DNA from: Patescibacteria group bacterium
GTDB taxonomy: Bacteria; Patescibacteriota; Patescibacteriia; Patescibacteriales; UBA12465
DNA length: 64,000 nt
NCBI GenBank assembly: GCA_041656935.1
Contig: JBBACQ010000003.1
Location: forward strand, 27,358-91,357
Direction of reading: 5' to 3'
A model generated the notes under the pieces. The model did no database searches and was not told the origin of the DNA. It saw only the letters and a list, made by a program, of their open reading frames with translations. Made by a program: the position numbers and the translations under genes. Of the stretch, positions 3,001 to 60,589 are shown in pieces; position 1 is the first letter of the stretch; every line of letters starts with the position of its first letter.

Positions 3001-5332
3001 AACTATTTCCATTAGGATTAATAGTAAAATTAACTTTATTAGAACCATAAATATCGGGGAAAGTATAGGTTAAGCTCTGATATTCAAAACCACCTGAATT
3101 ACTAATATTTTTAGGCAAGCTACCTCCTAAAGAGAAACTAGAAGTAGCCGTTCCCGAACAATAAGAATAAAAAGATAAGGTATAAGTTTCCCCACCGATA
3201 TTATAACTACTACTAGCAACTGTTATGTCCTCGGATAAAGAAGAAGAACTAGGAAGATATAAGGAAAGTTGACCAGTATAAAAATTAGTACTAGTAGAAT
3301 AAGAATCCCAACCACCAATACTCAAATCATCTTCAAAACTTCCATTTAATAAAAAATTATGGCCAACGCCTACGGCTGTTCTAATAAACTCTTGGCAACC
3401 CTCATCGTTAGCTGAACAAGATTGAATTTTATTGTTAAAATAATAAGAGCTGGAAATATCCCAAGTTACTTTTTTATTAAAAGAGTCATAGGTCAAGGGA
3501 ACAACATATTTTTTACAACCAACATTTTCCGCATCACAGCCTTCATAGTCAAGAGTGTTCTTTAATAAAGCTAATTTCTTACCGTTAGAAACACTAGTAA
3601 AATAATCGCAGGTATTATAAACTGGATCACAAGAATCTTCTGAAAAGTTCCAAATTCTTTTCTCTTCTAAACAATAACCATAATATTCACAGGTACCATC
3701 CGACCTCTCTTTAATACAGGATTGTTCGTCAGCACAATAATTATCAGACCGAGAAACAATAATCGGTTTAACACCAGTTTGTTGATAAATATCTTCGGCG
3801 ACATTAACCAATTGTTGACTAGCAATATGACCGCCGTATCCTTGACGTTTGCAATAATTTAAAGGCGCCTTTAGAACCCAATTAGGATCAATTAATCCTC
3901 GGCACCATAATGAATTTGAATCTTCCCCACCATAACCAGATTTAATAAAACCATCACTATAAGTTTCATAATCATCCTCGCTAGAAAAACAAGAAACAAA
4001 ATCCATTAAAGTATAGCGATAACCTTTATCAGTTGTTTTTTCTTCAGCTAAATTAAGAGCCTCTTCCCAACCCAAAGGGATAATACGAAACTTTCGTAAA
4101 ATAATTAAGGAACGATGATTAAACCCAGTGGTGTAATCAGAATATCTTTCTAAAGTCCAATCAGGATTTAAATAACCATTATCAATGGCCTCAATTACAG
4201 TATTTTTATTCTCAACTGCCTGTCGGAATTGATTATCAATAACACAATTATTCGGTCTCGGATTTTTAGGATCTAAACAAACAATTAAATCCGATAAAAT
4301 ATTATAATCAGCTCGAACGTTGAAGCGAGGTTTAATAACTTTTTTTAATGATTCTATTACATATTTCTGACCAGAGAATGAAGAGGGGTCAGAATCCGAA
4401 GAAGTATAATCTGGACCACCGTTGTCTGAAGAAGCATCCGGATCTTTTTTACCTAAATTTTTAACTATATTATTAAAAGCAGTTATTGCTAATTGATTTA
4501 AAAAAATATTAGAAGCGTCCACCAAAGCATTGCCAGTAAACTTTCCTAAATTTTGTACCAAGGCTGAGTCAGCTTGTTGTAATTCTCTCTCGGCCTGTCC
4601 GGGAGGAGTATCAGTTGTTCCACCAATATTTCTCAAATCTAACCAACCATTATTTATTTTTACCTGTTCTTCAATTTTTTCCTGTTCTTCATCCCCAATC
4701 TCGGCTGACCGACCAAAAAGTTCTAGAGCAATGGTAACATCATTGCCAGTTGGCTCAAACATATTGGCTACCTTGCTTAAATAGTCTGGACCGCTCATGC
4801 TAGCCCATTTTTCATATTCGTTCACCCAACTAGATTTTAATTCTTGCCAACCACACCTAGGAGCATAAAATTCTGGCTGGGAAAGAGCCACCAAACCTAA
4901 ACCCATTTTTACTTGAGTATCAAAACTAGGTTGACATAAATCAAATTGCCAATCTTTACTTAAGGTATCAATAAACTTACCAATTGCCGCATCTCTAGTT
5001 TTACTACCCAAATCGGTTAAATATTCTGTAGTAAATAATGGTTTTTGCCCCGCTTCACCACTACCAATCCAAGTAGCAACATCGAAAGCTAGAGTATTTA
5101 AGACCGATTGCAGAGTAGATTGAAAAGCCAAAGACCCAGCTTTTTTTAATTGGTCGGCCAAATCATCTTTGATATAATCAACAACTCCTCTAATAACACC
5201 AGTTGGTCCACCAATAACATCCGGGCCAGCCTGAACTTTGAAAGGATAAGATAGGGTTCCAAAAATAAAAGAGAAAATTAAAAAAAGAATTAAAATTTTC
5301 CCTTTATAAAAATTGAATTTAGGCTTATTCAT
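1..5332 (-). CDS. Giant secreted/cell-surface cysteine-rich protein, N-terminal >1777 aa; the gene continues beyond the window start
   Basis: Open minus-strand frame from ATG at 5332-5330 to position 1. I spot-translated three places: MNKPKFNFYKGKILILFLIFSFIFG at the start, SLEAISSSNKNIKLTVG near 2400, and CYSYTIDQETNEKICLEMRECN at 1-61. It has a hydrophobic N-terminal signal/anchor, is very Cys-rich, and contains NGSFEDD..GGW jelly-roll/CBM-like stretches. It is absent from the ORF track because there is no stop inside the window. Confidence 0.8.
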   Translation of the reverse strand, partial: MNKPKFNFYKGKILILFLIFSFIFGTLSYPFKVQAGPDVIGGPTGVIRGVVDYIKDDLADQLKKAGSLAFQSTLQSVLNTLAFDVATWIGSGEAGQKPLFTTEYLTDLGSKTRDAAIGKFIDTLSKDWQFDLCQPSFDTQVKMGLGLVALSQPEFYAPRCGWQELKSSWVNEYEKWASMSGPDYLSKVANMFEPTGNDVTIALELFGRSAEIGDEEQEKIEEQVKINNGWLDLRNIGGTTDTPPGQAERELQQADSALVQNLGKFTGNALVDASNIFLNQLAITAFNNIVKNLGKKDPDASSDNGGPDYTSSDSDPSSFSGQKYVIESLKKVIKPRFNVRADYNILSDLIVCLDPKNPRPNNCVIDNQFRQAVENKNTVIEAIDNGYLNPDWTLERYSDYTTGFNHRSLIILRKFRIIPLGWEEALNLAEEKTTDKGYRYTLMDFVSCFSSEDDYETYSDGFIKSGYGGEDSNSLWCRGLIDPNWVLKAPLNYCKRQGYGGHIASQQLVNVAEDIYQQTGVKPIIVSRSDNYCADEQSCIKERSDGTCEYYGYCLEEKRIWNFSEDSCDPVYNTCDYFTSVSNGKKLALLKNTLDYEGCDAENVGCKKYVVPLTYDSFNKKVTWDISSSYYFNNKIQSCSANDEGCQEFIRTAVGVGHNFLLNGSFEDDLSIGGWDSYSTSTNFYTGQLSLYLPSSSSLSEDITVASSSYNIGGETYTLSFYSYCSGTATSSFSLGGSLPKNISNSGGFEYQSLTYTFPDIYGSNKVNFTINPNGNSCYIDDIKLEKGAVGTFYSEYRGNGLIYEKIIPEYLKNICYVSPTDFRLKTNAPSECYKYARLCNNDEVGCETFTSIYNLKITGKVLDKNYCPNQCVGYDVYVQKNTLFENRAIEKLIPSSATSCNASQSGCTEFTNLDELAVGGEGKEYYTSLKHCIKPDGGTCENFYSWEGVSGGGYQLKSYSLEAISSSNKNIKLTVGSLTSSSANIWQHEINGSTVCDQNIYNKPVSDPGYNSDCREFYNQAGQIFYILYSKSISCSANCKTYRMTEKNINYAYTDSSGCLSLNQAGQPLVASWDSGLNVCYHCLNGGWWDNTQKACLYKSIPGEGQGCSASVNGCREYNGNSGNSVRIVDSFDFNYGLEDWAGDVSVSTTEALGQGGSSILLTDEMQNNIGNLAKTGSSYIIKFLAKSNQAENLSIYFTDGTAESLFGSVNKDDQEVQGVQISDSDDWTLYQVNLENLDHSVISGEDLVFKISDSSGNVYIANIVLLEISNRYYLIKDSWAVPAICKFDVLGNQQTENYNLGCQNYSDRLNNNHSLINFSKICDDSAVGCEMMVKTNNYNSYNPTNYSFQAVVYDTGKACSSANMGCSLFGKMLVENVYQDTYLKYDPNKATTTNGFLCTNNELGCDAWNSSSQSGTIYFKDPGDNVCQWRSGKIVSGTTEITALNWYKKKVNRCGGTGILCVTDSDCAVNVSCSLDNIDHLCAVDNLKTIGWGGSAIDQPTEDDNKVKWAGLCPIKQAGCTEYIDPVSSFGSNIIINSSFLDLDGDGQIFDFWEEITGACTLDDDEIVCSQNIKYQQNLNIKNNKLYILETKGEQDATIFCVNPIYELDSSNTFLDPLISPVAPSSYFVKVSKNVSGYNKKSFYSGDNNPCWVIYERPSGTFLIGEPDSQIELREAVIDYQLKQNLNSDSCSGADFSKGCVLFNERSYNNGIINPLNFNAYNYTNYSTCSGASCDANTLLKVDPDRVCGKWLACYSYTIDQETNEKICLEMRECN

Positions 5333-5361
5333 ATTTTATTATTTAATTTATTTGATAATTT

Positions 5362-6048
5362 TTAAAAACCCTCTAACGTTTCCTGATAAATTTTCATTAA
5401 ATCATCATCGCTCAATTGATCTAAATCATTTTGTGATAAACCGCCCTGCAATAACATTTCTCTAAGCATTTCTGGATTAATTTTATCGGCCTGAAGATCT
5501 TCTGAAAGATCAGTCTGATTTATTTGAGTTGAAGTGGTTCCTATTTCTGCTAATAAATTATATAAATCATCAGAACTTCCCGAAGAAACATTTTGCGAAT
5601 CTCCTTGATATAGGGAATCGGAACAATTTTGCCCCTCGGGACAAAGTGGATTAGTTCTATAAGTAAAAATTTCTTCGTAATCAGTTAGATCATCACCATC
5701 AGTATCTTCTAAATAAGGCGAGGTTCCATAAATAAATAATTCATCCCAATCTGAAATTCCATCACTATCAGTATCAACTAATTTTAATTCTAAATTACTC
5801 GAATTTAGATTTTCGTCTTTGTAACAACTCCCGTCGGTACAAATTTGCTGTTGGCTATTCCCGGCCAGAAGTCCCTTACTATAATCAAAAGGATTAGCCA
5901 AATTATGTTTAAAATTAAAAACCCAAATGATAACAACAAAAACACTAAAAAAAGACAAAATAATTACAGCCGTTTTTTGATTTTTTTCCATTTTTTTAGA
6001 GATACGGGATTTTCCAGAATCCTCATCTCGCCAACGGTTTTCTTCCAT
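5362..6048 (-). CDS. Membrane-anchored protein with Asp-rich thrombospondin-type-3-like (Ca-binding type) repeats
   Basis: TM helix AVIILSFFSVFVVIIWVF. Repeats DTDSDGISDWDE and DTDGDDLTDYEE. Lies directly upstream of the giant protein gene on the same strand. Confidence 0.6.
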   Translation of the reverse strand: MEENRWRDEDSGKSRISKKMEKNQKTAVIILSFFSVFVVIIWVFNFKHNLANPFDYSKGLLAGNSQQQICTDGSCYKDENLNSSNLELKLVDTDSDGISDWDELFIYGTSPYLEDTDGDDLTDYEEIFTYRTNPLCPEGQNCSDSLYQGDSQNVSSGSSDDLYNLLAEIGTTSTQINQTDLSEDLQADKINPEMLREMLLQGGLSQNDLDQLSDDDLMKIYQETLEGF

Positions 6049-7400: not shown

Positions 7401-7649
7401 TTATTTTTCCCTCTCCATGTCTATTGCTTTAACTGGGCATTCTTCGGCGCATAAACCACAACCCTTACAATAATCATAATTAATCTTAGCTTTTTTCTGA
7501 CCTTTTATTGTTGTTAATTCGGCGGCACTATCGGGACAAATTTTAGCACAAATCCCACAAGCAATACATTTTTCTAAATTTATTTTTGGTCGATGAGATC
7601 TCCATGAACCAGTTTTATTTTTAGAAGAAGTGTTTGGCTTTACATTCAT
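7401..7649 (-). CDS. porD: Pyruvate/2-oxoacid:ferredoxin oxidoreductase delta subunit (2x[4Fe-4S] ferredoxin)
   Basis: Two CxxCxxCxxxCP motifs (CIACGICAKICP, CKGCGLCAEECP). Adjacent to the gamma subunit gene. Confidence 0.85.
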   Translation of the reverse strand: MNVKPNTSSKNKTGSWRSHRPKINLEKCIACGICAKICPDSAAELTTIKGQKKAKINYDYCKGCGLCAEECPVKAIDMEREK

Positions 7650-7677: not shown

Positions 7678-8265
7678 TTAATTAACAGCACTTTTTTTAA
7701 TGGCTAAAATATTTTTAGCAATAATCTCTGGGCCTTTTTCAGAAAACTTTTCTTTAACCGCCTTAATACTACTCTCAACTTTTAATAATCCCGGAACCTT
7801 ACTTAAGGCCCCTAAAACTGAGGTATTCACCATATTTTTCCCAAAAATTTCCAAAGCAATTCGGGTAGCATCTATTAAAAAAATATTTTTTGTTTCTAAG
7901 CCAACTGGTAATTTGGTAACCTTTTTTATTTCTCTAAAAACCTCATCTAATTTGAGATTAGAATTTATAATTATTTGAGTATCGCCCTTAATACCTGAAA
8001 AAATATCAGCTTTTCCTAATAAAGAAAAATCTAAAATTATTAAAATATCAGGGTTATAAACATGTTCTCGGGTTAAAATTTCTTGGCTGGAAATTCTAAC
8101 AAAAGATTGAATCGGAGCTCCGCTTCTCTCTACTCCAAAATGAGGAAAGGCTTGAACAATTTTTCCATCATTAAAAAAAGCAATGGCTAAAATTTCAGCC
8201 ATAGCTACTACTCCTTGGCCTCCACGACCATGAATCCTAATTTCCTTATTGATTATTTTTTTCAT
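7678..8265 (-). CDS. porG: Pyruvate/2-oxoacid:ferredoxin oxidoreductase gamma subunit
   Basis: IRIHGRGGQGVVAMAEILA...HFGVERSGAP signature of the POR gamma family. Confidence 0.85.
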   Translation of the reverse strand: MKKIINKEIRIHGRGGQGVVAMAEILAIAFFNDGKIVQAFPHFGVERSGAPIQSFVRISSQEILTREHVYNPDILIILDFSLLGKADIFSGIKGDTQIIINSNLKLDEVFREIKKVTKLPVGLETKNIFLIDATRIALEIFGKNMVNTSVLGALSKVPGLLKVESSIKAVKEKFSEKGPEIIAKNILAIKKSAVN

Positions 8266-8304: not shown

Positions 8305-9081
8305 CTAATTACTATTTTTTAAAGCTTTATCTAAAAATTCTGACCAAAAAGTAAAAGGAATAGCCCCTTCTCCTACTTTAACTCCATTTATAAACCAAGT
8401 TGGCGTTCCAGCAATTTGTAAAAAAACACCATCGCTTTTATCTTTGGCAATATTAGAAATATATTTTTTTTCATCTATACAATTATAAAACTCATCGGTT
8501 TCAACTATACCAACTTCTTCCACTAAAGCTCCAATTCCTAAATTATATAATTCATCTTGCCAGGCAAATAGCTTGTAAAACATTGGCCAATATTTATCCT
8601 GCTCTCCGGCACACCGAGCTACTAAAGCTAAATTTTCTGATTCCTCACTAATAACTGGAAAATCTCTAACAATTATTTTCACCTGCTCGCCATATTTAAT
8701 AGCTAAAGAGCTAATGATTGGTAGGCTTTCTTTACAAATCGGACAAGAAAAGTCAGAAAAAACTACAATAGTTAAAACTGGATTTTCAGCTCCTAGGAAA
8801 TAAGAATTAGTTCCTTCAACTATTTTAATATTAGCTGGATTATAATCAGAATAAACACTCTTAACTTCATCAGAAGATTTTAAAGACTTTCTAACCAAGG
8901 CCATCTCCACTGGATTACTAATTAAATGAATAATTAAAAAAATAAAAGAAAGACTCACTAACAAAAGAGAGGCTAATATTACCAATAACAAAACGCCCCA
9001 CCATTTTTTATGCCAACGAGCTGATAGCTTTTTACTCAATCCTTTAGCTCTTAAATATTTTATTCTTTCTTCTAAATTCAT
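8305..9081 (-). CDS. Membrane-anchored DsbA-family thiol:disulfide oxidoreductase
   Basis: N-terminal TM helix. Thioredoxin fold with a CPIC active site (VVFSDFSCPICKE). Confidence 0.8.
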   Translation of the reverse strand: MNLEERIKYLRAKGLSKKLSARWHKKWWGVLLLVILASLLLVSLSFIFLIIHLISNPVEMALVRKSLKSSDEVKSVYSDYNPANIKIVEGTNSYFLGAENPVLTIVVFSDFSCPICKESLPIISSLAIKYGEQVKIIVRDFPVISEESENLALVARCAGEQDKYWPMFYKLFAWQDELYNLGIGALVEEVGIVETDEFYNCIDEKKYISNIAKDKSDGVFLQIAGTPTWFINGVKVGEGAIPFTFWSEFLDKALKNSN

Positions 9082-9157: not shown

Positions 9158-9922
9158 ATGAAAATTATATCTTGGAACATTAATGGAATCAGGGCGGTTG
9201 TTAAAAAGGGCTTTAAGGATTTTTTAGAAAAAGAAAGCCCTGATATTTTAGTTTTACAGGAAATTAAAATATCAGATGATAAAAAAAACAAGGAAGAATT
9301 TGATTTTAGTGATTATGAAGAATTTTGGAATTCAGCTCAACGACCTGGTTATAGCGGAACATTAATATTATATAAAAAAGAATTAAAAGTGCTAAAAAAA
9401 GAAAATGGTTTAAAAATTGATAAATTTGATAATGAGGGCCGAGTTCAAACCCTAGAATTAAAGGATTTTTACCTAATTAATACTTATTTCCCCAATTCTA
9501 ATCACGAGTTGAGCCGATTAGGCTACAAATTAGATTTTAATAATGAATTAGAAAAATACTTAAAAAAATTAGACAAAAAGAAACCAGTTATTTTAACTGG
9601 GGATCTAAATGTTGCCCATCAAGAAATTGATTTAGCTCGTCCCAAAGAGAATATTGGCAATCCCGGATTTACTTATGAAGAAAGAAATTGGCTAACTAAT
9701 TTTCTAAAAGATGATTTTATTGACACCTTTAGACATCTACATCCAAAAAAAATAAAATATTCTTGGTGGAGTTTTCGTTCTGGCGCCAGAATTAAAAACA
9801 TTGGCTGGAGAATTGATTATTTTTGTGTCTCAAAAAAATTAATAAAAAAAATAGAGCGGGCTGATATTTTAGACCAAATCACTGGTTCAGACCATGCTCC
9901 AATTGTTTTAGAGATAAAATAA
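9158..9922 (+). CDS. xth: Exodeoxyribonuclease III (AP endonuclease)
   Basis: MKIISWNINGIRA...LQEIK...GDLNVAH...GSDHAP motifs of the ExoIII/APE family. Confidence 0.9.
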   Translation: MKIISWNINGIRAVVKKGFKDFLEKESPDILVLQEIKISDDKKNKEEFDFSDYEEFWNSAQRPGYSGTLILYKKELKVLKKENGLKIDKFDNEGRVQTLELKDFYLINTYFPNSNHELSRLGYKLDFNNELEKYLKKLDKKKPVILTGDLNVAHQEIDLARPKENIGNPGFTYEERNWLTNFLKDDFIDTFRHLHPKKIKYSWWSFRSGARIKNIGWRIDYFCVSKKLIKKIERADILDQITGSDHAPIVLEIK

Positions 9923-10185: not shown

Positions 10186-11319
10186 ATGTCTAAAAATAAT
10201 AAAGCACAAATATTAGAGGGGTCTCGGGCGATTGCCTTAACTATAAAAAACATCCAACCCGATGTTATTTCTGCTTACCCAATTACTCCCCAAACCCATA
10301 TTGTCGAAGATTTAGCTAAATTTAAAGCTGATGGCCTAGCTAATTATGAATATATTCGATCGGAAAGTGAATTTTCAGCAGCTTCTATTGTTCTCGGTGC
10401 CTCCGCCAAAGGAGCTCGCGCTTATAGCGCTACCAGTTCTCAAGGGCTACTCTTAATGACCGAAGTAATCTACAATATTTCCGGAATGCGTTTGCCAATA
10501 GTTATGACTTTAGCTAATCGAGCCATTTCCGCCCCCATTAATATTTGGAATGACCACCAAGACGCCATGGCTATTCGTGACGCCGGTTGGATTATGTTAT
10601 TCGCCGAAAATAATCAAGAGGCTGTTTGGCAACATCTTTTAGCTTTTAAAATCGCTGAAAAATTATCCCTACCGGTCATGGTAAATATTGATGGTTTTAT
10701 TTTAACTCACTGCTATGAACCCGTTTATATCCCTGAAAAAAAACTAATCAAAAAGTTTTTACCAAAATACAAACCACTTAAGGGAAAATATTTAGATTCT
10801 AAAAATCCTATTACTATGGGGGCTTTTATGACCCCTCAACATTATCAAGAATACCGAAAAAAAATAGCTGATGATTTTACTACAGCTATAGAAGAAATTA
10901 AAACTGAACATCAAATTTTACAAAAACTTACCAAAGCAAAAATGATTAAAGGAGTTATTGATAATGGTTTAATAGAATATTCTGGACCCAAAAACCCCCA
11001 GACCATTATAATAGCTATGGGTTCGGTAATTGGAACTATAAAATCAGCCATCGCTTCGATAACGACAACTAAAAATAATAGTGTGGGAGTCTTAAAAATA
11101 AAATCTTACCGTCCTTTTCCAGCCAAGGAAATATATGATATAATAAAAAGAGCTAAAAACTTAATAGTCTTAGAAAAAGCTATTAGCCCAGGAAATTTTA
11201 GCCCCTTATTTTTAGATATAAAATCAATAAGTTCCGACCGCCAAAAGATAAAAAGTTTTATTAGCGGATTAGGCGGACGCGATATCACCGAAAAAGAAAT
11301 TTTAAAGATTATAAAATAA
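10186..11319 (+). CDS. porA: Pyruvate:ferredoxin oxidoreductase alpha subunit
   Basis: AYPITPQT...SESEFSAAS...ATSSQGL motifs of the POR alpha family. Confidence 0.9.
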   Translation: MSKNNKAQILEGSRAIALTIKNIQPDVISAYPITPQTHIVEDLAKFKADGLANYEYIRSESEFSAASIVLGASAKGARAYSATSSQGLLLMTEVIYNISGMRLPIVMTLANRAISAPINIWNDHQDAMAIRDAGWIMLFAENNQEAVWQHLLAFKIAEKLSLPVMVNIDGFILTHCYEPVYIPEKKLIKKFLPKYKPLKGKYLDSKNPITMGAFMTPQHYQEYRKKIADDFTTAIEEIKTEHQILQKLTKAKMIKGVIDNGLIEYSGPKNPQTIIIAMGSVIGTIKSAIASITTTKNNSVGVLKIKSYRPFPAKEIYDIIKRAKNLIVLEKAISPGNFSPLFLDIKSISSDRQKIKSFISGLGGRDITEKEILKIIK

Positions 11320-11336
11320 AAATTAAAAAATAACGT

Positions 11337-11480
11337 ATGTTTAAATTGTTTGATAAAATTATCAGAAAAAAACCTAGTCATAAAATAACTGGTTGGCCCT
11401 TGGTTTTTTTAATAACATTTTTCTTCATTTTTTTAATCCAAATTTTAATTTTAATAATATTAATGAAAATAATAAATTAA
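11337..11480 (+). CDS. Possible 47-aa single-pass membrane peptide
   Basis: My own translation: MFKLFDKIIRKKPSHKITGWPLVFLITFFFIFLIQILILIILMKIIN. It falls below the ORF-track length cutoff and fills the porA-to-pilin-like gap. Confidence 0.25.
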   Translation: MFKLFDKIIRKKPSHKITGWPLVFLITFFFIFLIQILILIILMKIIN

Positions 11481-11484
11481 AAAT

Positions 11485-12348
11485 ATGAAAAATAATAGAA
11501 ACATCACTCTTAAGGCCATTATTCTAATATTTTTTTTATTAATATTTTTTGTTCCCATTAATAAAACTTTAGCCAGTGGAATAGAATTTGTCCCTCAAGT
11601 TACCATCCCGGGATCTAATTTTATTAAAGGACAAAACACTACTATAGAAGGCGGAACCAAGGCCTTGGCTATCTATGTTAAATCTATTTATAATTACTTA
11701 TTAGCCATAGTTGGATTGCTCGCTGCTATTGTTTTAATGGTTTCGGGTGTTATTTGGTTAACCGCTGGAGGAAATACTGAAAAAATCGGCCAAGCTAAAG
11801 GCTGGATGACTGGTAGTTTAACTGGTTTAATTTTAATGCTAACTTCCTACGTAATTTTAAGAACGATAAATCCTTATTTGGTTGATTTTAGAACAAACGA
11901 TGTTGATAATATTGACCGCCGAGAAAAAAACACTGTTTGCGTTAAATATAATGAAGGGGAAAGACAAGGAGAAACAAAAGATGGTAAATTATTTATAACC
12001 AGAACCGCCGCCGAAATAGCCGAGAATGAAAAACTTAAAGAAGAAGGAAAAACTATTCAAAATGTAGCCAAAGAGTGCTTAGAAGATGAAGTTTGTGCTA
12101 AAATTAAATATGAAAATCCTAATGATATTTTTGAATGTACTAAAAAAAATAAAATTAGATGTTGCCAATATGAAAAAATGGATTCACTCGGAATAACTTG
12201 CAAAACAATAACTAACGGAGAAAGTTGCCCTGATCCTAAAGAATCATATCCTGATATTAAATTAAAATATATATACGAAGAAGAGATTTGTGATTTGCAA
12301 TTTAATAATTCTGGAAGAAATGCCTGTGTCCCAGATGGAAAAATGTAA
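11485..12348 (+). CDS. Cys-rich membrane protein with a TrbC/VirB2-like (type IV secretion pilin-like) two-helix domain
   Basis: Signal/anchor, then AIVGLLAAIVLMVSGVIWLTAGGNTEKIGQAKGWMTGSLTGLILMLTSYVIL, then a Cys-rich C-terminal extension. Paralogous core to the ORF at 13236-14618. Confidence 0.6.
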   Translation: MKNNRNITLKAIILIFFLLIFFVPINKTLASGIEFVPQVTIPGSNFIKGQNTTIEGGTKALAIYVKSIYNYLLAIVGLLAAIVLMVSGVIWLTAGGNTEKIGQAKGWMTGSLTGLILMLTSYVILRTINPYLVDFRTNDVDNIDRREKNTVCVKYNEGERQGETKDGKLFITRTAAEIAENEKLKEEGKTIQNVAKECLEDEVCAKIKYENPNDIFECTKKNKIRCCQYEKMDSLGITCKTITNGESCPDPKESYPDIKLKYIYEEEICDLQFNNSGRNACVPDGKM

Positions 12349-12377
12349 AAAAATTAAAAAATATATAAATATTATCC

Positions 12378-13211
12378 ATGAATAAAAAAAAACTAATTTC
12401 ATCCGGTCACAACGCCTGTGCCGGTTGCGGACAATTATCAGCCGTGCAATCGGTAATGCGGGCTCTAGGAGATGATGTTATTATCGCCAATGCTACTGGT
12501 TGTCTAGAAGTAACCACCACTCCCTATCCTCAAAGTGCTTGGGGAGTCCCTTGGATACACTCTCTATTTGAAAATCCTTCGGCTGTAGCTACTGGAATAT
12601 CAGCTACCCTAAAAAAACAAAAAAATCTCAAAACTAAAGTTGTAGTTATGGCTGGCGACGGTGGAACTTTTGATATTGGTTTAGGATTAATCAGCGGAAT
12701 GTGGGAAAGAAAAGAAAATATTTTATATATTTGTTATGATACTGAAAGTTATTCTAATACTGGTTACCAAGCTTCGGGGGCCACTCCTTATGGAGCTTCC
12801 ACCAGTACCTCACCTAAGGGAAGTTGTCCTCCCCAAAAAACACTTTGTAATACTATCGGAAATCAATATCAAAAAAAGGATATGATAAAAATTGCTCTAG
12901 CCCATGATGTCCCTTACGTTGCTCAAACTACAGCTGGCTATCCCGACGATATTTATAATAAAGTGAAAAAAGGTAAAGAAATAAATGGTCCAGCTTATAT
13001 TCAAATTTTATCGCCTTGTGTTCCCGGTTGGGGAATAAAAACTAATGAAGCTGTTAAAATTGGAAAATTAGCCGTTCAAAGTGATTTATATCCTTTATTA
13101 GAATATGAAAATGGAATATTAACAAACAAAAGTGAAAAGCCAAATAACTTTTCCGAAGTAAAAAAAGAATATTTACAAAAACAAAAAAGATTCCAACATT
13201 TAATAAAATAA
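12378..13211 (+). CDS. porB: Pyruvate:ferredoxin oxidoreductase beta subunit (TPP-binding)
   Basis: GHNACAGCGQ...GDGGTFDIG motifs. Confidence 0.9.
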   Translation: MNKKKLISSGHNACAGCGQLSAVQSVMRALGDDVIIANATGCLEVTTTPYPQSAWGVPWIHSLFENPSAVATGISATLKKQKNLKTKVVVMAGDGGTFDIGLGLISGMWERKENILYICYDTESYSNTGYQASGATPYGASTSTSPKGSCPPQKTLCNTIGNQYQKKDMIKIALAHDVPYVAQTTAGYPDDIYNKVKKGKEINGPAYIQILSPCVPGWGIKTNEAVKIGKLAVQSDLYPLLEYENGILTNKSEKPNNFSEVKKEYLQKQKRFQHLIK

Positions 13212-13235
13212 TTTTTGAATTACTCTTCTAAAAAT

Positions 13236-14618
13236 ATGCCTAAATATTTTAATAAAATAATCACTCTATCTTTATTAATATTATTTTTTGTTTTTTTAGT
13301 TCCCACCACACAGGTTCAATCAGCTGAAATTGGAGAAAAATGTACAAGTTTTCAAGATTGCCCTATTAACAATATGTGCGTTTACTCAGGGATGTCTAAA
13401 AGATGTTATCCTAAAATAGGGGGAGGTTGTAATAGTAATAATGATTGTTCTCATATAGAAGAACACTTAGGAATTCCTGGGGCTTTTTGTGATTTATCTA
13501 AACCGGTATTAACATACCCCGGAAGTTGCTTTAGCGCTAGCAGTGCTCCCAAAACAACCACCGATGATGGTTGTTCCTGGCGAGTAGAAAGACTTGTTCC
13601 CGGTGGCACAGTAAGCACTTTTCAAGGAGGATGCTATAGTACCGAAGAAAAATCTAGTAATGATAAATGTAAAACTATTACCCAACCAGAAAAAAATTCT
13701 GGAGACACTATCTACTGTTGTTGCCGAAAAAAAACGGAAGAAAAAGTTAAAACTCCCGATTTAAATCCTTTAGGAAATTTACAAATAAAAATTCCAGGGT
13801 TAGAAGAATTAGCTGAAAAATACCCAGTAATTTGTGAAAAAAAAGACGGTAGTGAGGTTTGTAAAATACCTTGGATTGCCGTTTATATTTATGCTATTTA
13901 TAATTATCTTCTAGGTATTGGTGGAATTTTAGCAGCGCTGGCTTTAATGATTGGTGGAGTTATCTGGCTAATTTCGGCTGGAAACGCTACTCGTGTTACT
14001 CAAGCTAAAAGCTGGATTACCGGTAGTATAACTGGATTAGTTATTCTTTTAACTTCTTATGTTTTACTTTATCAAATAAATCCGAATTTAGTGGGGATGA
14101 AGTATTTAGAACTTGAAAGTGTTCTTCCATTGGCTTGTGCTGGGATAGACGAGACCAACGAAAACCCCTATATAGCCGGATGTGCAGCTTCTAAAAATGG
14201 CGATTTTAGTATTTGTCGGGCTTTTGGAGAAATAGAAGCTAATAGTTTAATTACTGACCCTGTTTCTGGGAAAAAAGTACACACCGACACATTAAATAAA
14301 TTTAATGAAGCCATGAAATGTGTCAAAGCGAAAAATTCCAATAAAGATCTTTTTAAAATATCTTCAGGCTGGAGAAGTGCTTTAGGCCAAATTAAAGCCA
14401 AGGAAGATTGGATAAAAGCAGGAGTTCCCAAAAATGCCGCTAATCCCTGTTGCTCTAATCATGGATCCGGAAAAGCAATGGACTTAATGAGATTAGATGG
14501 ACAAAAAATGTCATGGGACTATAATGAAAGCTCTGGATTAAAAGAATGTATGAATGCTCAAGGACTATACGCAAATCTATCCAGCGAACCTTGGCATTGG
14601 TCACCGACTGGAAAATAG
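13236..14618 (+). CDS. Cys-rich T4SS-pilin-like membrane protein fused to a C-terminal LAS/M15-type (VanY-like) zinc peptidase domain
   Basis: The track ORF starts at a TTG at 13215; the ATG at 13236 (MPKYFNKIITLSLL, signal-like) is more likely. Pilin-like core: ILAALALMIGGVIWLISAGNATRVTQAKSWITGSITGLVILLTSYVLL. C-terminus has SGWRS, HGSGKAMD (H-x6-D) and EPWHW. Confidence 0.6.
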   Translation: MPKYFNKIITLSLLILFFVFLVPTTQVQSAEIGEKCTSFQDCPINNMCVYSGMSKRCYPKIGGGCNSNNDCSHIEEHLGIPGAFCDLSKPVLTYPGSCFSASSAPKTTTDDGCSWRVERLVPGGTVSTFQGGCYSTEEKSSNDKCKTITQPEKNSGDTIYCCCRKKTEEKVKTPDLNPLGNLQIKIPGLEELAEKYPVICEKKDGSEVCKIPWIAVYIYAIYNYLLGIGGILAALALMIGGVIWLISAGNATRVTQAKSWITGSITGLVILLTSYVLLYQINPNLVGMKYLELESVLPLACAGIDETNENPYIAGCAASKNGDFSICRAFGEIEANSLITDPVSGKKVHTDTLNKFNEAMKCVKAKNSNKDLFKISSGWRSALGQIKAKEDWIKAGVPKNAANPCCSNHGSGKAMDLMRLDGQKMSWDYNESSGLKECMNAQGLYANLSSEPWHWSPTGK

Positions 14619-18881: not shown

Positions 18882-20591
18882 CTATAGCCCTCGAACTTCA
18901 CTTTGATCATCTAAATCTTTTTCTTTTTTAACTCGATGACTAAAAGGCAGTTTTCTTTTAATAACTTCCAATAATTCTAAAACTTCTTCGCTCCTCATTA
19001 CATAACAAAGCAAAACATAAACCGCCAGACCAAGTAACCCAGCAAAAAAACCTTGAGCCAATACTCCCCAGAGTTTGCTCATATCAATTACTGGCCAAAT
19101 TAAATATTTTCCTAATTGAATAAAAAAACCAGCCACCACACCAGCCACAGAAAATTTAAAAACTGAATGAATAATTTTTCTTTGATCTAAATCTCCAATT
19201 TCAAAATAGAGCCATAACCACAAAATCATAAAATTCAAAATGCTAGATATAGATAAAGCTAGGGCTAGACCGGCGACCCCCATTCTTTTACCAAAAAATA
19301 ATGATAAAAAGATATTTATCACCACAATAAAAATTCCAATATAAAAAGGTGTCTTAGAATTATAGCGAGCATAAAAAACTCTGGTTAATAATGGAATAGT
19401 CGCCTGAGCAAATAATCCCAAAGCAAAAAAGCCTAGAGTATCAATAGTTAAAACAGTATCTCTCCAAGAAAATTCACCCGTTCCTAAAACAACTCGAATT
19501 ATCTGAGCTCTTAAGGTAATTAATAAAACAGTGGAGGGAATTATAAAAAATAAAATTTGTCTAAAGGCATACGAAAAATTAGAGATTAATTTCTCTTTAT
19601 TAAAAGCAACGGCTGACAAAACCGGAAAGGCCGCCACCGCAAAAGATATTCCAAAAATACCAATAGGAAACGACTGTAAATTATTAGCAAAATTGAAAAC
19701 GGCTAGGGAACCACTAGCCAAAGTTGAAGCGATTATTGTAACCACTAATAAATTTATTTGAACGGTAGCCAAACTTAAGGTTCGGGGTAACATCATTTTA
19801 AAAATTTCTCTTAAATTATATTCTTCTAAATTGACTAAAAGCTTCCACCTAAAACCTAAAATCATAACTGAAGGAAATTGAATCATCATGTGCATAAAAG
19901 CTCCCAGAACTACCCCCCAAGCTAACCCGCTAACACCAATAATAGGGACGAAAAACAAAGCTCCAACTATTATACCTAGATTATAGAAAATAGGAGCTAG
20001 AGAAAAAATTAAAAAATTTTTAAAAGATTGCAAAACTCCACCCAATAAACTAGAAATCCCTAAAAAAATTGGGGAGAGAAACATTATTCTAGAAAGAGTA
20101 ACGGCCGTTTCTTTTAACTCTGGAGAAAATCCTGGGGCAATTATTTTTATAAGTTGCGGAGCTAAAAATAAACCCAAAATCGAAAAGAAGGCTAAAACAA
20201 TTATTAATATATTTAAAAGATTGCTTACTAAATTCCAAGCCTCTTTGTTTTCCGAACTAGAATAACAAAAATAAAAATTTTCATTACATCTCATCTTTTT
20301 TATTAAAGCTGAAAAGACGGGGATAAACCCAGCCGATAAAGCTCCTAGAATGATAAGATTATAAATTAAATCTGGAATACGAAAAGCACTATAATAAGCA
20401 TCCAAAACCTCTCCCGCCCCAAATTCTCCAGCTAAAATTCTATCTCGAAAAATTCCCAAGATTCTGGAAAACAAAGAAAATACCCCCACTAAAATAGCAG
20501 CGGCCGCAATACCAGAAGTTCTTGCTTGAAAAACATTTTTAAAACTAAACATTTTATCTAAATTATTTTTTACCAACCACCCTAACATCAA
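18882..20591 (-). CDS. murJ: Lipid II flippase MurJ/MviN
   Basis: SRILGIFRDRILAGEFGAG..LDAYYSAFRIPD and a polytopic profile. The start is probably the internal Met at 20552, which would remove the 29-nt overlap with the upstream gene. Confidence 0.85.
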   Translation of the reverse strand: MMLGWLVKNNLDKMFSFKNVFQARTSGIAAAAILVGVFSLFSRILGIFRDRILAGEFGAGEVLDAYYSAFRIPDLIYNLIILGALSAGFIPVFSALIKKMRCNENFYFCYSSSENKEAWNLVSNLLNILIIVLAFFSILGLFLAPQLIKIIAPGFSPELKETAVTLSRIMFLSPIFLGISSLLGGVLQSFKNFLIFSLAPIFYNLGIIVGALFFVPIIGVSGLAWGVVLGAFMHMMIQFPSVMILGFRWKLLVNLEEYNLREIFKMMLPRTLSLATVQINLLVVTIIASTLASGSLAVFNFANNLQSFPIGIFGISFAVAAFPVLSAVAFNKEKLISNFSYAFRQILFFIIPSTVLLITLRAQIIRVVLGTGEFSWRDTVLTIDTLGFFALGLFAQATIPLLTRVFYARYNSKTPFYIGIFIVVINIFLSLFFGKRMGVAGLALALSISSILNFMILWLWLYFEIGDLDQRKIIHSVFKFSVAGVVAGFFIQLGKYLIWPVIDMSKLWGVLAQGFFAGLLGLAVYVLLCYVMRSEEVLELLEVIKRKLPFSHRVKKEKDLDDQSEVRGL

Positions 20592-22644
20592 GGGCCATGA
20601 TTTGATCTTCCTTAGCTATTAAAGGATTAACATCAACCTCAAAAATATTTGGTTGATCTTTAATTTTCTTAGAAAAATTTAAAATAATATCAATTAATTT
20701 TTTTATATTTATTCCTTTTTTTCCTCGGGCTCCAACTAAAATCGGGTAACATCTCAGTTTTTTAATCATTTTCAAAACACGATCTCGATCTAAATCAGCT
20801 GTTTCTAGGACAATGTCTTTATAAATTTCTGAATAAATTCCACCTTGACCTAATAAAACAATCGGCCCAAAAACCGGATCTCTTTTAAAACCTAATATTA
20901 ACTCCCAACCATTTTTTACCATCGGCTGAAAAACAACTTTGTTATCAAAGGCTATCTTTTTTTTCATCTTTTGTTCTTGAAAAATATCAAGAACATTTAA
21001 AGCCTCACTTTTATTTTCAATATTTAAGAAAACGGCCTGCTTATCGCTTTTATGAATAAAATCGGGACCGGTAAATTTAATAACAATCGGATATTTTATT
21101 TTATTTAAAATTTTCTTATTTATCTCTTTAGATGAAACCATTTTTAAACCTATTTTTTTCAAAAAATTAAACGATTTTAAATAATCCCAAACCTCTAAAT
21201 CGGAAGCGTAATCAACTGCCTCTTCATTTTTGTCTTTTTTCTCTTCTATGAAATTTTTAATAGTTTTTCTATTATTTAAATAATTAAAAAACTTAGATAA
21301 AATATTAATCGCCTCTTCCAAAGAATCAAAATTTGATATAGCGTATTTATTTAAAATATTTTTACTCTTAGCAACTTCGACTCCGCCAATAAAACAGGTG
21401 CCTACCAACTTATCTGGATATTTTTCTTTTATTTTCCCAATAACCTCGGCGGTTGGGACCACCTTGGTCATGCTCTGCGGAGTTAATAAAATCAAAACTG
21501 AAGAAACCTTAGGATCAGCCAAAATTAAACTCAAAGATTTTTGATATCTTTCGGGATCAGCATCCCCTAAAATATCTAAGGGATTTTTTACATGAGCAAA
21601 GCTAGGTAATGTTTTTTTCAATTTAATAATTGTTTCTTTAGAAAGAACGGCTAACGATAAATTATTTTCATAGGTCGCATCGCTAGCTAAAACCGCTAGG
21701 CCCCCAGCATTAGAAACAATCGCTAATTTACCAGAGGTATCTTTGACCGGCCCCTTAATAAGGTGCATTAAATTATATATTTCATTAATATTTTCTAAAA
21801 TAATTGCTCCGGCTCGCTCTAGAGCTGTTAGGGTAACTTCATAAGAACCAGCCAAACTGCCAGTATGAGATTTAGCCATCTCCCCTCCGCTGACTGTTCG
21901 CCCCGATTTAAGTATAGCTACTGGTTTAGTTTTAGCTAATTTAGAAACTAATTTTAAAAATTTTTGTCCCTGAGAAATTTCTTCTAAATAGGCTACTATT
22001 AAATCAGTTTTTTTATCCTTAGCTAAAAATTCAAAAAAATCATTTTCATTTAAGTTTAATTTATTACCTAAGCTAACGAAATAAGACAAGCCGATATTTT
22101 TGTCTCTAATCCAATCTAAAAGAGCGCTACCAATAGCCCCAGACTGAGATAAAAAAGCAATATTATTAGTTCTTTTTATTTCTGGCACTAATAAATAATT
22201 AGAGAAGGTAACATTCAAAAATTTATCGTTATTAATAAATCCTAAACAATTAGGACCTAAAATATTAATCTTATTTTTATTAGCTAAAATTTTGATTTTC
22301 TCTTCTAACGCCTGACCATCATTGTCAGCCTCTTTAAACCCAGCACTAATAATAACAACACTCTTTATGCCCAAGCGAGCACATTTCTCTATTTCAGCTA
22401 TAACAAATTTTGCTGGTATAACTATCACGACCAAAAGTTCCGCCCATTTTTTTATTGGCAAATCACTAATATCGGCGTAAGCTTTAATTCCGGCTATTTT
22501 TTTCTCTTTAAGATTAACCGGGAAAACCCCCGTTTTTTTTGTCAGACTAATATTATCAAAGACTTTTCGCCCCACTTTTTCAACGTTATTAGAAGCTCCC
22601 ACGACAGCAATAAATTTGGGGTTTAAAAATTTTTCTAATTTCAT
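20563..22644 (-). CDS. ADP-forming acetyl-CoA synthetase (fused alpha/beta; CoA-binding + ATP-grasp)
   Basis: N-terminal CoA-binding region (IAVVGASNN..KVGR), SHTGSLAG phosphohistidine loop, C-terminal ATP-grasp. Confidence 0.85.
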   Translation of the reverse strand: MKLEKFLNPKFIAVVGASNNVEKVGRKVFDNISLTKKTGVFPVNLKEKKIAGIKAYADISDLPIKKWAELLVVIVIPAKFVIAEIEKCARLGIKSVVIISAGFKEADNDGQALEEKIKILANKNKINILGPNCLGFINNDKFLNVTFSNYLLVPEIKRTNNIAFLSQSGAIGSALLDWIRDKNIGLSYFVSLGNKLNLNENDFFEFLAKDKKTDLIVAYLEEISQGQKFLKLVSKLAKTKPVAILKSGRTVSGGEMAKSHTGSLAGSYEVTLTALERAGAIILENINEIYNLMHLIKGPVKDTSGKLAIVSNAGGLAVLASDATYENNLSLAVLSKETIIKLKKTLPSFAHVKNPLDILGDADPERYQKSLSLILADPKVSSVLILLTPQSMTKVVPTAEVIGKIKEKYPDKLVGTCFIGGVEVAKSKNILNKYAISNFDSLEEAINILSKFFNYLNNRKTIKNFIEEKKDKNEEAVDYASDLEVWDYLKSFNFLKKIGLKMVSSKEINKKILNKIKYPIVIKFTGPDFIHKSDKQAVFLNIENKSEALNVLDIFQEQKMKKKIAFDNKVVFQPMVKNGWELILGFKRDPVFGPIVLLGQGGIYSEIYKDIVLETADLDRDRVLKMIKKLRCYPILVGARGKKGINIKKLIDIILNFSKKIKDQPNIFEVDVNPLIAKEDQIMALDVRVVGKK

Positions 22645-22857: not shown

Positions 22858-24291
22858 TCAAAAATTAAAATATTTTTTTAATTTGGCTTTTAAACTCGTG
22901 CCCGTTAAACTTATCTCTATTTTTTCTATTTCTACAAAATTCTCCTCCCTTATTTCCGACAAAAAAGGAATTGAAAAAATAAAATGATAACCATCCTTAT
23001 CCACAAAAGCACCATTTAAATCAACCTTTAAAATAGACTCCCAAGATTCATCTTTAAACTCCGCTTTATTATATTTAGCTACTATAAAATCAAAATTTTC
23101 AATGTTTAAATCTTGATCTAACCTAATTAACCAAGGATCAAAAAAAGATTCTTCCGTGAAAGAAAATAAACCATTATTTTCTATCAATAAACCACTGGAA
23201 TATAATTTTAACCTATTTAATTTATCTACTCTATCCGAGATAGAGCTTACATTAAATTGCTTATAAATTTCATCTACCCAAAAACTTTCATTATTAATCT
23301 CGATTTTGCCTAAATGTTCAGAAGATAAAGCTTTTAGTCTAAAATTATTCTTCAGAGAAAAAATAGTTGTTTCCGAAGTTAATTCATCTAAAAACAATTT
23401 ATTTAAAAAAACCAACTTTGTTAAATTTGCCCTAATTTCATCGGTTATAATATTATCACTACTATTAATTTCTACTTTATAAACACCTTCCTTTAAATCT
23501 GGCAGGTCGAGAACAAAAGCCAAGGTATTATTACTAAAATTATTATCGCTAATGTTTTTTTCAAAAATTAAATCATTTGCTTGATAAACTCTAACTCTAA
23601 AATTTTCTGAGGTGGCTTCAATCTTCCTAAAAATAAAATTAATATTTAAAGCCTCTTCTTTCACATAAGTAAAAAAAGAATATGACCCTCTTATTTTATT
23701 TATTTCTAAAATATTTCTAGTCTGAGGTTCATAATCATCTAAGACAAATTCTCTATCGATGTCATAATTATAAAAAATAGTTTTAGAAAAATCATTATTA
23801 TTTATAAAGTCTGAGTAACTGGCAAAAATATTATTTTTTTGGAAAAATAAAACAGCTTCTTCTTCCTTAACTGACCATTTTTCCGATAAACTGTTCAATT
23901 TATTATTATAAACCGGATATAACCTATAATCCCAATTATTTTTATCAACCAACACCCCAGCCTCAATATTTAAAAAATCAGCTCGGCTTAAATCTTGGCT
24001 AATTTTATACTTTAATTTAATTTCAGCCTCATTGAAATGGCGAGACGTTCTTAAATTAAAATAAACTGGGTCACCAATTATCTTATTCTTATCTAATAAT
24101 CGATCACTAGGGCCGAATTTATGAAAGAAACCCTGACCGCCTAATAGATTAAAACTTTTTTTAGAAAAATCATAACTATAGGTTATTTTCCCTGAAGGAA
24201 CAACATAAAAATAAGCCAAAACCATTAAGCTGACCCCTAAAAAAGAGTATAAAAAAAATCTAACTTTTTTCATCTTTAAATTATGCCACAT
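22858..24291 (-). CDS. Hypothetical membrane-anchored extracytoplasmic protein
   Basis: Long ORF with an N-terminal TM helix (FLYSFLGVSLMVLAYFYVV); no recognisable motif. Confidence 0.5.
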   Translation of the reverse strand: MWHNLKMKKVRFFLYSFLGVSLMVLAYFYVVPSGKITYSYDFSKKSFNLLGGQGFFHKFGPSDRLLDKNKIIGDPVYFNLRTSRHFNEAEIKLKYKISQDLSRADFLNIEAGVLVDKNNWDYRLYPVYNNKLNSLSEKWSVKEEEAVLFFQKNNIFASYSDFINNNDFSKTIFYNYDIDREFVLDDYEPQTRNILEINKIRGSYSFFTYVKEEALNINFIFRKIEATSENFRVRVYQANDLIFEKNISDNNFSNNTLAFVLDLPDLKEGVYKVEINSSDNIITDEIRANLTKLVFLNKLFLDELTSETTIFSLKNNFRLKALSSEHLGKIEINNESFWVDEIYKQFNVSSISDRVDKLNRLKLYSSGLLIENNGLFSFTEESFFDPWLIRLDQDLNIENFDFIVAKYNKAEFKDESWESILKVDLNGAFVDKDGYHFIFSIPFLSEIREENFVEIEKIEISLTGTSLKAKLKKYFNF

Positions 24292-53345: not shown

Positions 53346-53631
53346 ATTTTTTATTTACATTGACTCAAGCATTTAAAAATGCTAAGCTTTTATAGTTAAT
53401 TTTAAATATATCTGGCTAAAAAAAACAACAACTAGAATAGTAATAATATCGATAAAAATATTGTTCTTAATAAGAAAAATAGTCTTTTTTATTGTAAAAT
53501 TATTAAAAACTATAATAATAGAGACTTTAAACTTCCTGTTTTTTAAAACTATAATAAAGCTATATTATAATTATATCTTAATTTACAAAAAAATAAAAGA
53601 AATTAACCAAAAAAACAATTCTAAGCTTTAT

Positions 53632-60502: not shown

Positions 60503-60589
60503 AATTTTAAAAATTAATTTTATAAAAAGTTTTATAATTAATAAACTGCTCTGGAGTATAGCACAAAATAAATAAAATAACAATAAACC

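Follow-up and report, generated by a model that had tools for sequence, protein, structure and literature searches.

PF18895 pilin-domain proteins, one joined to a predicted M15B-type peptidase, are interleaved with pyruvate ferredoxin oxidoreductase genes in Patescibacteria

PF18895 or VirB2-like pilins are widespread in the ultra-small Patescibacteria (Wang et al., 2023, PMC10633639; Quinonero-Coronel et al., 2025, PMC12102498). Epibiotic growth of Candidatus Southlakia epibionticum requires a pilin array encoded in its type IV secretion system (T4SS) cluster (PMC10633639). That cluster contains small PF18895 pilins (SEML1_0014-0019, 103-185 amino acids (aa); PMC10633639 supplement) and separate hydrolases, one a lysozyme/cysteine-peptidase and one resembling M15B/M23 proteins (PMC10633639 supplement; PMC12102498). 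A survey of 3,035 genomes noted that VirB1 is absent from the majority of Patescibacteria that have VirB2 homologues (PMC12102498). Falkowbacteria, which fall in GTDB class ABY1 (PMC12102498 supplement), are listed with VirB4, TrsD, VirB3 and two type IV coupling proteins, and have many VirB2 homologues away from virB4 (PMC12102498). Modular type IV pilins occur in many architectures, several of them in candidate-phyla bacteria and one with peptidase activity (Raynaud et al., 2021, PMC8179133). The present analysis concerns two genes for PF18895 proteins that are interleaved with the genes of a pyruvate ferredoxin oxidoreductase (POR) in a 64,000-nucleotide (nt) stretch of a Patescibacteria group bacterium genome (contig JBBACQ010000003.1; the whole stretch is called the window below). 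Classical four-subunit POR operons (porGDAB) of archaea, Thermotoga and Helicobacter are contiguous. The families found here are known, while the architecture and operon context appear undescribed: full-text literature searches, of incomplete coverage, found no paper on PF18895-hydrolase fusions or on their interleaving with por genes.

All four POR subunit genes (alpha, beta, gamma and delta) were found in the window with strong family matches, and they were not contiguous. The gene between porA and porB is referred to as slot 1 and the gene following porB as slot 2. The open reading frames (ORFs) of porA, the 287-aa slot-1 gene, porB and the 460-aa slot-2 gene all lay where a first-pass annotation of this DNA had placed them. 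The features of the locus were:

7401 to 7649, minus strand: porD, POR delta, an 82-aa ferredoxin with two CxxCxxCxxxCP (4Fe-4S) motifs
7678 to 8265, minus strand: porG, POR gamma (Pfam POR E=3.1e-38; NCBIfam PorC_KorC 176 bits vs. a cut-off of 81)
8305 to 9081, minus strand: DsbA-like thiol-disulfide oxidoreductase, membrane-anchored, with a CPIC motif (Thioredoxin_4 E=5.8e-20, DSBA E=2e-12)
9158 to 9922, plus strand: ExoIII-like endonuclease/exonuclease/phosphatase gene, its position kept in relatives (Exo_endo_phos E=1.8e-24)
10186 to 11319, plus strand: porA, POR alpha, 377 aa (POR_N E=1.6e-71, PFOR_II E=1.1e-22, PorA_Arch E=3.6e-128)
11485 to 12348, plus strand: slot-1 pilin-like protein, 287 aa (PF18895 31.8 bits)
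12378 to 13211, plus strand: porB, POR beta, binding thiamine pyrophosphate and Fe-S, 277 aa (TPP_enzyme_C E=6.9e-17; PorB NF008819 E=3.7e-99)
13236 to 14618, plus strand: slot-2 pilin-like protein, 460 aa, with a C-terminal M15B/VanY-type peptidase (PF18895 33.7 bits)

Slot 1 thus lies between porA and porB, and porG and porD lie on the opposite strand. The slot-2 ORF yields 460 aa from ATG 13236 and 467 aa from the alternative TTG 13215; a database protein 95% identical to the slot-2 protein (P0001) is 460 aa long, and slot-2 residue numbers below follow the 467-aa numbering.

Both slot proteins contained the PF18895 (T4SS_pilin) hairpin at scores above the Pfam gathering score of 26.6 bits, and the isolated core of the window scored 38.1 bits. 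A hidden Markov model (HMM) of the core picked up just these two genes across the 64 kb. Among related cores, 75 of 75 matched PF18895; their secondary matches were weak, the most frequent being PF04956 (18/75, best E=0.0012), with DUF6112 and CagC also represented. The two cores of the window were 57% identical over 76 aa and the protein pair was recovered by BLASTP at E=6e-29, so that by sequence comparison the two proteins are clearly paralogous; the shared two-helix core described in the first-pass annotation stands, while its description as near-identical was an overstatement. BLAST between the two proteins showed no similarity beyond the core, Cys-rich regions included. Homology of the two Cys-rich regions had been considered, and was dropped because the similarity is confined to the core.

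The slot-1 protein comprised a Sec-type signal peptide (aa 1-30), the PF18895 hairpin (aa 59-134; nt 11659-11886) and a C-terminal domain with 10 Cys (aa ~150-287; nt 11932-12345). An identical database protein (P0121) carries the NCBI name "pilin". The slot-2 protein comprised a signal peptide, an N-terminal Cys-rich region (aa ~38-210), the hairpin (aa 216-296; nt 13860-14102) and a C-terminal zinc peptidase domain of M15B/VanY type (aa ~330-467; nt 14202-14615). The Cys map gave 0 Cys before the core and 10 after it in the slot-1 protein, and 16 before and 7 after in the 460-aa slot-2 protein, in agreement with the earlier description of a C-terminal Cys-rich region in the one and an N-terminal region in the other. 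In both proteins, hydropathy showed the two helices of the hairpin to be the sole hydrophobic segments after the signal peptide, with a short polar loop between them. AlphaFold2 (AF2) models placed the slot-1 helices at residues 59-93 and 98-128 with a predicted local distance difference test (pLDDT) score of 85-96, and the slot-2 helices at 220-253 and 258-288 with high confidence; the slot-1 C-terminal domain scored below 60. No type IV pilin family was found among the Pfam matches at E<=0.1, and the N-termini were ordinary Sec-type signal peptides.

By motif, profile and fold, the assignment of the slot-2 C-terminus to the VanY/LdcB-type M15 zinc peptidases holds. The sequence SNHGSGKAMD fits the pattern SxHxxGxAxD and is accompanied by ExxH, which are the LAS motifs of VanY/LdcB-type enzymes. 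The predicted zinc ligands were H416 (14460-14462), D423 (14481-14483) and H461 (14595-14597), and the predicted catalytic residue was E458 (14586-14588). In an alignment of 47 homologues the invariant columns were R387, Q392, C413, H416, D423, E458, W460 and H461; the motifs picked out in the first-pass annotation (SGWRS, H-x6-D and EPWHW) are all present, with R387, Q392, H416, D423, E458, W460 and H461 on invariant columns. The Pfam VanY score of the single sequence was below threshold (15.7 vs. 25 bits, E=0.013). The family profile searched against PDB sequences gave VanXYc (E=3e-8), LdcB (4e-6) and Ply500, an L-Ala-D-Glu peptidase (4.4e-5), with DacB and VanY also among the matches. AF2 assigned pLDDT above 90 to residues 320-467, and Foldseek of the C-terminal domain returned VanXYc, LdcB and VanY at E=1e-5 and probability 1.0, with 15-23% identity. 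These results bear out the LAS/VanY-like zinc peptidase of the first-pass annotation, so that a significant match was obtained for each half of the proposed fusion, PF18895 for the pilin-like module and M15 for the enzyme. Candidate bond specificities are D-Ala-D-Ala, L,D-carboxypeptidase and L-Ala-D-Glu cleavage.

Besides a conserved CCC motif, the N-terminal Cys-rich region of the slot-2 protein (13326-13844) contained a small beta domain, modelled with confidence, at aa ~110-175 (pLDDT 80-94). A near-invariant Cys pair, C207 and C216, stood just ahead of the first hairpin helix. No fold or family was assigned to this region, its Dickkopf-like fold matches being weak (E ~1), and in orthologues it matched Cys-rich Pfam families sporadically.

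The two slots differed in what they carried among relatives. Slot-1 proteins matched PF18895 in 71 of 72 cases and contained an enzyme domain in 0 of 72; their core was followed by a C-terminal Cys-rich domain that is fast-evolving. The 84 slot-2 proteins shared the N-terminal Cys-rich region and the pilin core, and their C-terminal domain varied between orthologues. Pfam domains at this position were: VanY in 16 of 84 (E<0.001, best 2.4e-13), NlpC/P60 in 10, Peptidase_M15 in eight, 3D in four, C39_2 in three, C39 in two, Amidase_5 in two, M15_4 in one, and SLT in one. Other slot-2 orthologues had a C-terminal domain without a recognised family, and wider homologues beyond the slot-2 orthologues added GH24 lysozyme, Amidase_2 and M23. 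A pilin-hydrolase fusion, which had first been regarded as unusual, thus proves to be common in this lineage, and its catalytic domain can be exchanged. Lytic chemistries that can be interchanged in this way fit a wall-breaching job better than one specific housekeeping step. Slot-specific HMMs separated the two paralogues, and the duplication is therefore older than this radiation.

Gene order was compared in a sample of one genome per species, made up of 80 loci encoding slot-2 relatives and two non-redundant loci from a protein index (82 in total), with locus annotation made in this analysis and not taken from the records. The loci were retrieved via the slot-2 protein, and the counts show where slot-2 orthologues sit rather than where all PF18895 genes do. 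The relatives were nearly all Patescibacteria, mostly labelled Candidatus Falkowbacteria. The order porA-pilin-porB-pilin was found on one strand in 63 of the 82 loci, and 16 further loci were cut by contig ends and were consistent as far as their sequence goes. Three deviated: L085 (HGW-Falkowbacteria-1) contained porA-pilin-porB with the slot-2 gene missing, L082 contained two pilin genes and then porB, and L067 is described below. Three close relatives from the protein index had the same order as the window. Median gaps were 4 nt between porA and slot 1, 4 nt between slot 1 and porB, and -4 nt between porB and slot 2, a spacing typical of translationally coupled operons. Across related loci, identity was 50-77% for PorA and 54-86% for PorB, and fell to 26% for the slot-2 protein. 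In a PorB homologue search made for an outgroup, the matches listed were all at least 66% identical. With the interleaving kept in 63 species-level genomes at near-zero gaps, the pilin genes are not insertions absent from close relatives; the pilin-in-por layout is not a recent insertion, and is real and old.

The porA/slot-1 gap of the window (165 nt) was at the long end of the range. It is occupied by a 47-aa hydrophobic ORF, MFKLFDKIIRKKPSHKITGWPLVFLITFFFIFLIQILILIILMKIIN (11337-11480, plus strand), which is called as a gene on an identical Logan contig (L001). This ORF was rejected as a gene and is probably spurious or strain-specific, since the median gap of 4 nt in relatives leaves no room for it. 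Tandem pilin copies were seen at slot 1 in L022, L025 and L070, and at slot 2 in L036, L046, L055 and L076. Gene order of the patescibacterial type was also found under record titles naming other taxa (Methanoregula sp., Planctomycetota, Bacillota, Saccharimonadales and Gammaproteobacteria), including L086 (GCA_023228295.1), L053, L054, L075 and many entries titled "uncultured Gammaproteobacteria", which suggests mis-binning or automated mislabelling in public records.

No other gene stays with the pilin-module genes as persistently as the DsbA gene, which was found in 59 of 59 relatives having upstream sequence. In 49 of these 59 loci, DsbA and porG were on the same strand as the four-gene unit; in the other 10, the upstream Exo-DsbA-porG block was inverted. 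In a rough tree of Exo and DsbA, the inversion marked a sub-clade that includes the window, and its breakpoints spared porA-pilin-porB-pilin. In three loci without por genes, DsbA was again directly upstream of pilin-module genes. L067 (labelled Falkowbacteria) contained DsbA followed by a slot-1-type and a slot-2-type pilin gene 3 nt apart; in L088, DsbA overlapped the first of two pilin genes, with C39_2 and 3D genes next; and in L086, a more distant contig, DsbA was followed by a pilin-GH24 lysozyme fusion and RadA, with type IV pilus and ComEC genes nearby. A rough neighbour-joining tree (Exo and DsbA, no support values) placed L088 inside the por-containing group, and the pilin pair therefore does not need POR; this position hints, tentatively, that por was lost in L088 rather than inserted elsewhere. 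The N-terminal hydrophobic segment of the window DsbA covers residues 25-63, and by its sequence the protein would be a natural partner for disulfide-rich exported domains. A second thioredoxin-fold protein (59777-60583, minus strand; Thioredoxin_2 and Glutaredoxin matches all sub-threshold) was encoded far from the por/pilin DsbA and may be another envelope redox component.

The reading preferred here, with a probability of roughly 0.5, is that the locus encodes a DsbA-served envelope module in which modular VirB2-like pilin-domain proteins carry a VirB1-like wall-cutting role at a T4SS. The module comprises three genes, those for the membrane DsbA and the two paralogous PF18895 proteins, mixed with porG, porD, porA and porB in a conserved, operon-like block. 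Both proteins would be exported via the Sec signal peptide and seated in the membrane by the hairpin, with their flanks outside. Once the signal peptide is cleaved, the Cys-rich regions and the hydrolase can all lie outside in one topology only, with the N-terminus out, the loop in and the C-terminus out, and this is the topology we infer. DsbA would form disulfides in the Cys-rich domains of both proteins. The slot-1 protein would then display its Cys-rich domain, and the slot-2 protein would display a second Cys-rich domain together with a peptidoglycan hydrolase, whose M15B/VanY/LdcB-type peptidase would cleave the stem peptide. The pilin module would act as a carrier, delivering the hydrolase, along with the Cys-rich domains (probably for binding), to the patescibacterial T4SS, either at its site or on its filament. 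Such a fusion would supply VirB1-like wall breaching, a function for which most such genomes are without a separate gene, and its target may be the cell's own wall or the wall of an attached host. A T4SS-linked wall-breaching role is the most likely one because pilin and hydrolase are separate neighbours in S. epibionticum and are fused here (a Rosetta-stone argument), and because VirB1 is missing. The likeliest cause of the interleaving with por is a common transcript with translational coupling, in a genome that has been streamlined, and not a biochemical partnership.

Several observations weigh against this proposal. The first-pass annotation had likened the core to TrbC/VirB2-type pilins; the resemblance stands for PF18895, which scored above the gathering score in both proteins, but the window core did not match the classical TrbC/VirB2 model PF04956 (E=1.5, 9.5 bits vs. 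27.9). A PDB fold search with the slot-1 model returned nothing significant, the best match being the Aeropyrum pernix conjugation pilus (8dfu) at E=4.8, with a template modelling score of 0.61 on the target; generic helical hairpins scored about as well. The profile of the 75 hairpin cores gave, against PDB sequences, chance matches to FXYD transmembrane segments only. Structure prediction of the core, which had been proposed as a check, thus yielded a confident AF2 hairpin, but one that the fold search cannot tell from other helical hairpins. Because so simple a fold has little power to discriminate, and because the Cys-rich domain of the slot-1 model was poor, the pilin assignment rests on sequence family and not on structure. 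The slot-1 and slot-2 proteins (287 and 460 aa) are 2-4 times the size of the pilins on which S. epibionticum depends. VirB4, VirB6 and VirB3 were not found in Pfam scans of the window ORFs of at least 90 aa that were checked (64 kb), as the first-pass annotation had already stated for VirB4 and VirB6. The reading of co-transcription is based on gene spacing alone. The flanking genes, namely those for RNase H, RecJ, LepA, MurJ and an ADP-forming acetyl-CoA synthetase (ACD), were also syntenic across relatives; with the whole neighbourhood conserved, gene order by itself is no proof of functional coupling. Lastly, an ordinary cell-wall enzyme could equally well be encoded by a single-copy gene in such a fixed housekeeping setting.

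That last point belongs to the best-surviving alternative, in which the hairpin is a two-pass anchor only: the slot-2 protein would be a tethered autolysin or carboxypeptidase remodelling the wall of the cell that makes it, slot 1 would encode a surface protein, and neither protein would have a tie to a pilus or T4SS. Both proteins are single-copy orthologues in a fixed setting with MurJ, LepA and RecJ, and no T4SS core gene adjoins them within the window. Large globular domains on both sides of the hairpin are hard to reconcile with the dense packing of a VirB2-type filament, and the LdcB/VanY relatives are normally wall-maturation enzymes. However, the swapping of unrelated lytic chemistries between orthologues is unusual for a one-step wall-maturation enzyme and typical of wall-breaching modules, and stand-alone wall enzymes are already encoded elsewhere in the window (an S11 carboxypeptidase with DPBB, 41141-42760; an M23-LysM protein, 53461-54759). 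The hairpin also belongs to a specific family rather than being a generic transmembrane segment, as seen from the uniform PF18895 matches and the recurrent weak second matches to VirB2/TrbC and CagC, and small proteins of this family are the essential T4SS-cluster pilins of S. epibionticum (PMC10633639). On balance, the anchor explanation is considered somewhat unlikely.

At the other extreme, the T4SS-linked proposal can be put in its fullest form: a VirB2-like pilin serving as a modular carrier that presents exchangeable peptidoglycan hydrolases and disulfide-rich binding domains on, or at the base of, a T4SS pilus, supplying the "missing VirB1" and possibly opening the host wall when the epibiont attaches, with its production hard-wired to the POR operon by translational coupling. 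All of these elements holding together is doubtful.

A functional coupling of POR and the pilin proteins is very improbable. Under this explanation, the hairpin loop would tether POR to the membrane, or the DsbA and Cys-rich set would be tied to pyruvate redox flow. The very tight interleaving in 63 species (median gaps of 4, 4 and -4 nt), with PorA at 50-77% identity, and the 49 of 59 loci in which DsbA, porG, porA, pilin, porB and pilin are co-directional would be expected of such a partnership. Against this, DsbA still precedes pilin-module genes in the three por-less loci, the rough neighbour-joining tree nests one of these loci (L088) among the por-containing ones, and L085 contains porA-pilin-porB but is without the slot-2 gene. 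POR is soluble and cytoplasmic in characterised systems, and the short cytoplasmic loop shows nothing like a docking site. DsbA moreover requires an electron acceptor, whereas POR yields reduced ferredoxin.

Origin as a phage or mobile lysis cassette (a holin-like hairpin and an endolysin inserted in the por operon) is effectively refuted by the conserved synteny: M15 and other slot-2 domains are common endolysin modules, the peptidase region is weakly like part of the phage tape-measure family phrog_16823 (E=0.0017) and a membrane hairpin beside a lysin is superficially holin-like, but neither hairpin matched any PHROG holin or endolysin family, no flanking integrase, repeats or other mobile-element genes were found, the GC content is that of the surroundings, and the locus is vertically conserved in 63 species-level genomes.

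The first-pass annotation had also pointed to a VirD4-like ATPase elsewhere in the window:

44802 to 46532, minus strand: VirD4/TrwB-like ATPase (TrwB_AAD_bind E=1.5e-11, TraG-D_C)

The family match stands, but it says little about the pilin locus. The protein had no predicted transmembrane segment, contained a treble-clef zinc finger (PF23477) and matched phrog_5156, of unknown function, at E=9.7e-72. Its neighbours were nrdD/nrdG and genes for a GT2 glycosyltransferase, DivIC and a penicillin-binding protein (PBP), with no T4SS genes among them. Coupling-protein homologues are abundant in Patescibacteria and rarely near virB4 (5,713 in 2,918 genomes, of which 148 near virB4; PMC12102498). 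Orphan homologues are near-universal in the group and may be exapted according to the literature, and the window ATPase is a usual orphan of this kind (PMC12102498).

An 81-82-aa Fer4 gene equivalent to porD adjoins porG in relatives. The ExoIII-like gene (9158-9922) is conserved beside the pilin module, with nothing evident to link the two in function. The ACD gene lies near the por genes at 20563-22644, and POR with ADP-forming acetyl-CoA synthetase is, as predicted from these genes, the usual route from pyruvate to acetate and ATP. The region is a core fermentative energy module of a low-GC genome; GC content was ~31%, and that of the pilin-module genes was the same as their surroundings. 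A scan for consensus promoters and terminators gave 45 promoter-like sites where 35 would be expected, and the spaces between the genes contained no convincing terminator; AT-rich DNA of this kind (31% GC) makes such a scan uninformative. An Rfam scan of the window returned two tRNAs only, and no regulatory RNA in the operon.

Elsewhere in the window, a giant ORF (2-5335, minus strand; at least 1,778 aa) ran off the window start and encoded an N-terminal signal peptide. Relatives have proteins of 2,700-2,800 aa at this position with faint CBM_4_9 matches, beside a TSP3-repeat protein (window 5362-6048) and KsgA, and the giant ORF probably encodes a huge surface protein. No Pfam match was obtained for three minus-strand ORFs: 28736-31165 (809 aa), 22858-24291 (477 aa) and 56994-57983 (329 aa). 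The 809-aa and 477-aa ORFs were also without a PHROG match, and the 809-aa protein contained 13 Cys and no hydrophobic segment.

To our knowledge, the T4SS and type IV pili are the only patescibacterial machines on which growth on a host has been shown to depend. Pilin-hydrolase fusions offer a concrete and testable answer to the missing VirB1, and supply candidates for a wall-breaching enzyme, whether it acts on the producing cell itself or on its host. The POR/pilin layout, found in at least 63 species-level genomes, shows with unusual clarity genes for a surface organelle that are locked into an operon of central metabolism. If the modular-carrier reading is true, the genes for attacking a host and for fermenting pyruvate would be expressed together as a unit; if the hairpin is a mere anchor, the finding shrinks to a lineage-specific family of membrane-tethered autolysins.

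Compared with known systems, the POR of this locus has the same full subunit set as the classical four-subunit operons (porGDAB) of archaea, Thermotoga and Helicobacter. In contrast to those operons, porA and porB are split here by a non-POR gene, and porG and porD lie beyond the DsbA and ExoIII-like genes on the opposite strand. The slot-2 catalytic domain shares with VanY, VanXY and LdcB (MEROPS M15B) the motifs SxHxxGxAxD and ExxH, the conserved Arg and Gln, and a matching fold. It differs from them in its extra conserved Cys (C412 and C413 before the first His; C369 and C445) and in its fusion to a membrane hairpin and a Cys-rich domain.

The patescibacterial PF18895 pilins have the same hairpin module, above the family threshold and after a Sec signal peptide. 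Whereas those of S. epibionticum are small and encoded in a virB4 cluster, the hairpin is found here inside larger proteins with Cys-rich domains and a hydrolase, and their genes lie inside a POR operon with no T4SS core gene within the window. The modular type IV pilins, such as PilB of Streptococcus sanguinis, follow the same principle of a small pilin carrier with a grafted effector module (PMC8179133). They nonetheless belong to an unrelated filament system with a class III signal peptide and a single N-terminal helix, as opposed to the Sec peptide and the two-helix hairpin with modules on both sides found here. VirB1-type hydrolases, among them PrgK of pCF10 and TraG of pIP501, are membrane-held wall-cutters dedicated to a secretion apparatus, often multidomain and with interchangeable lytic domains (PMC12102498). 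These enzymes combine a lytic transglycosylase and CHAP with a single anchor and are encoded in a T4SS locus, whereas the slot-2 protein combines an M15B domain with a pilin module. The likeness to VirB1 is a functional analogy only and the link to the T4SS is one that we infer; in some orthologues, SLT or NlpC/P60 fills the same slot-2 position.

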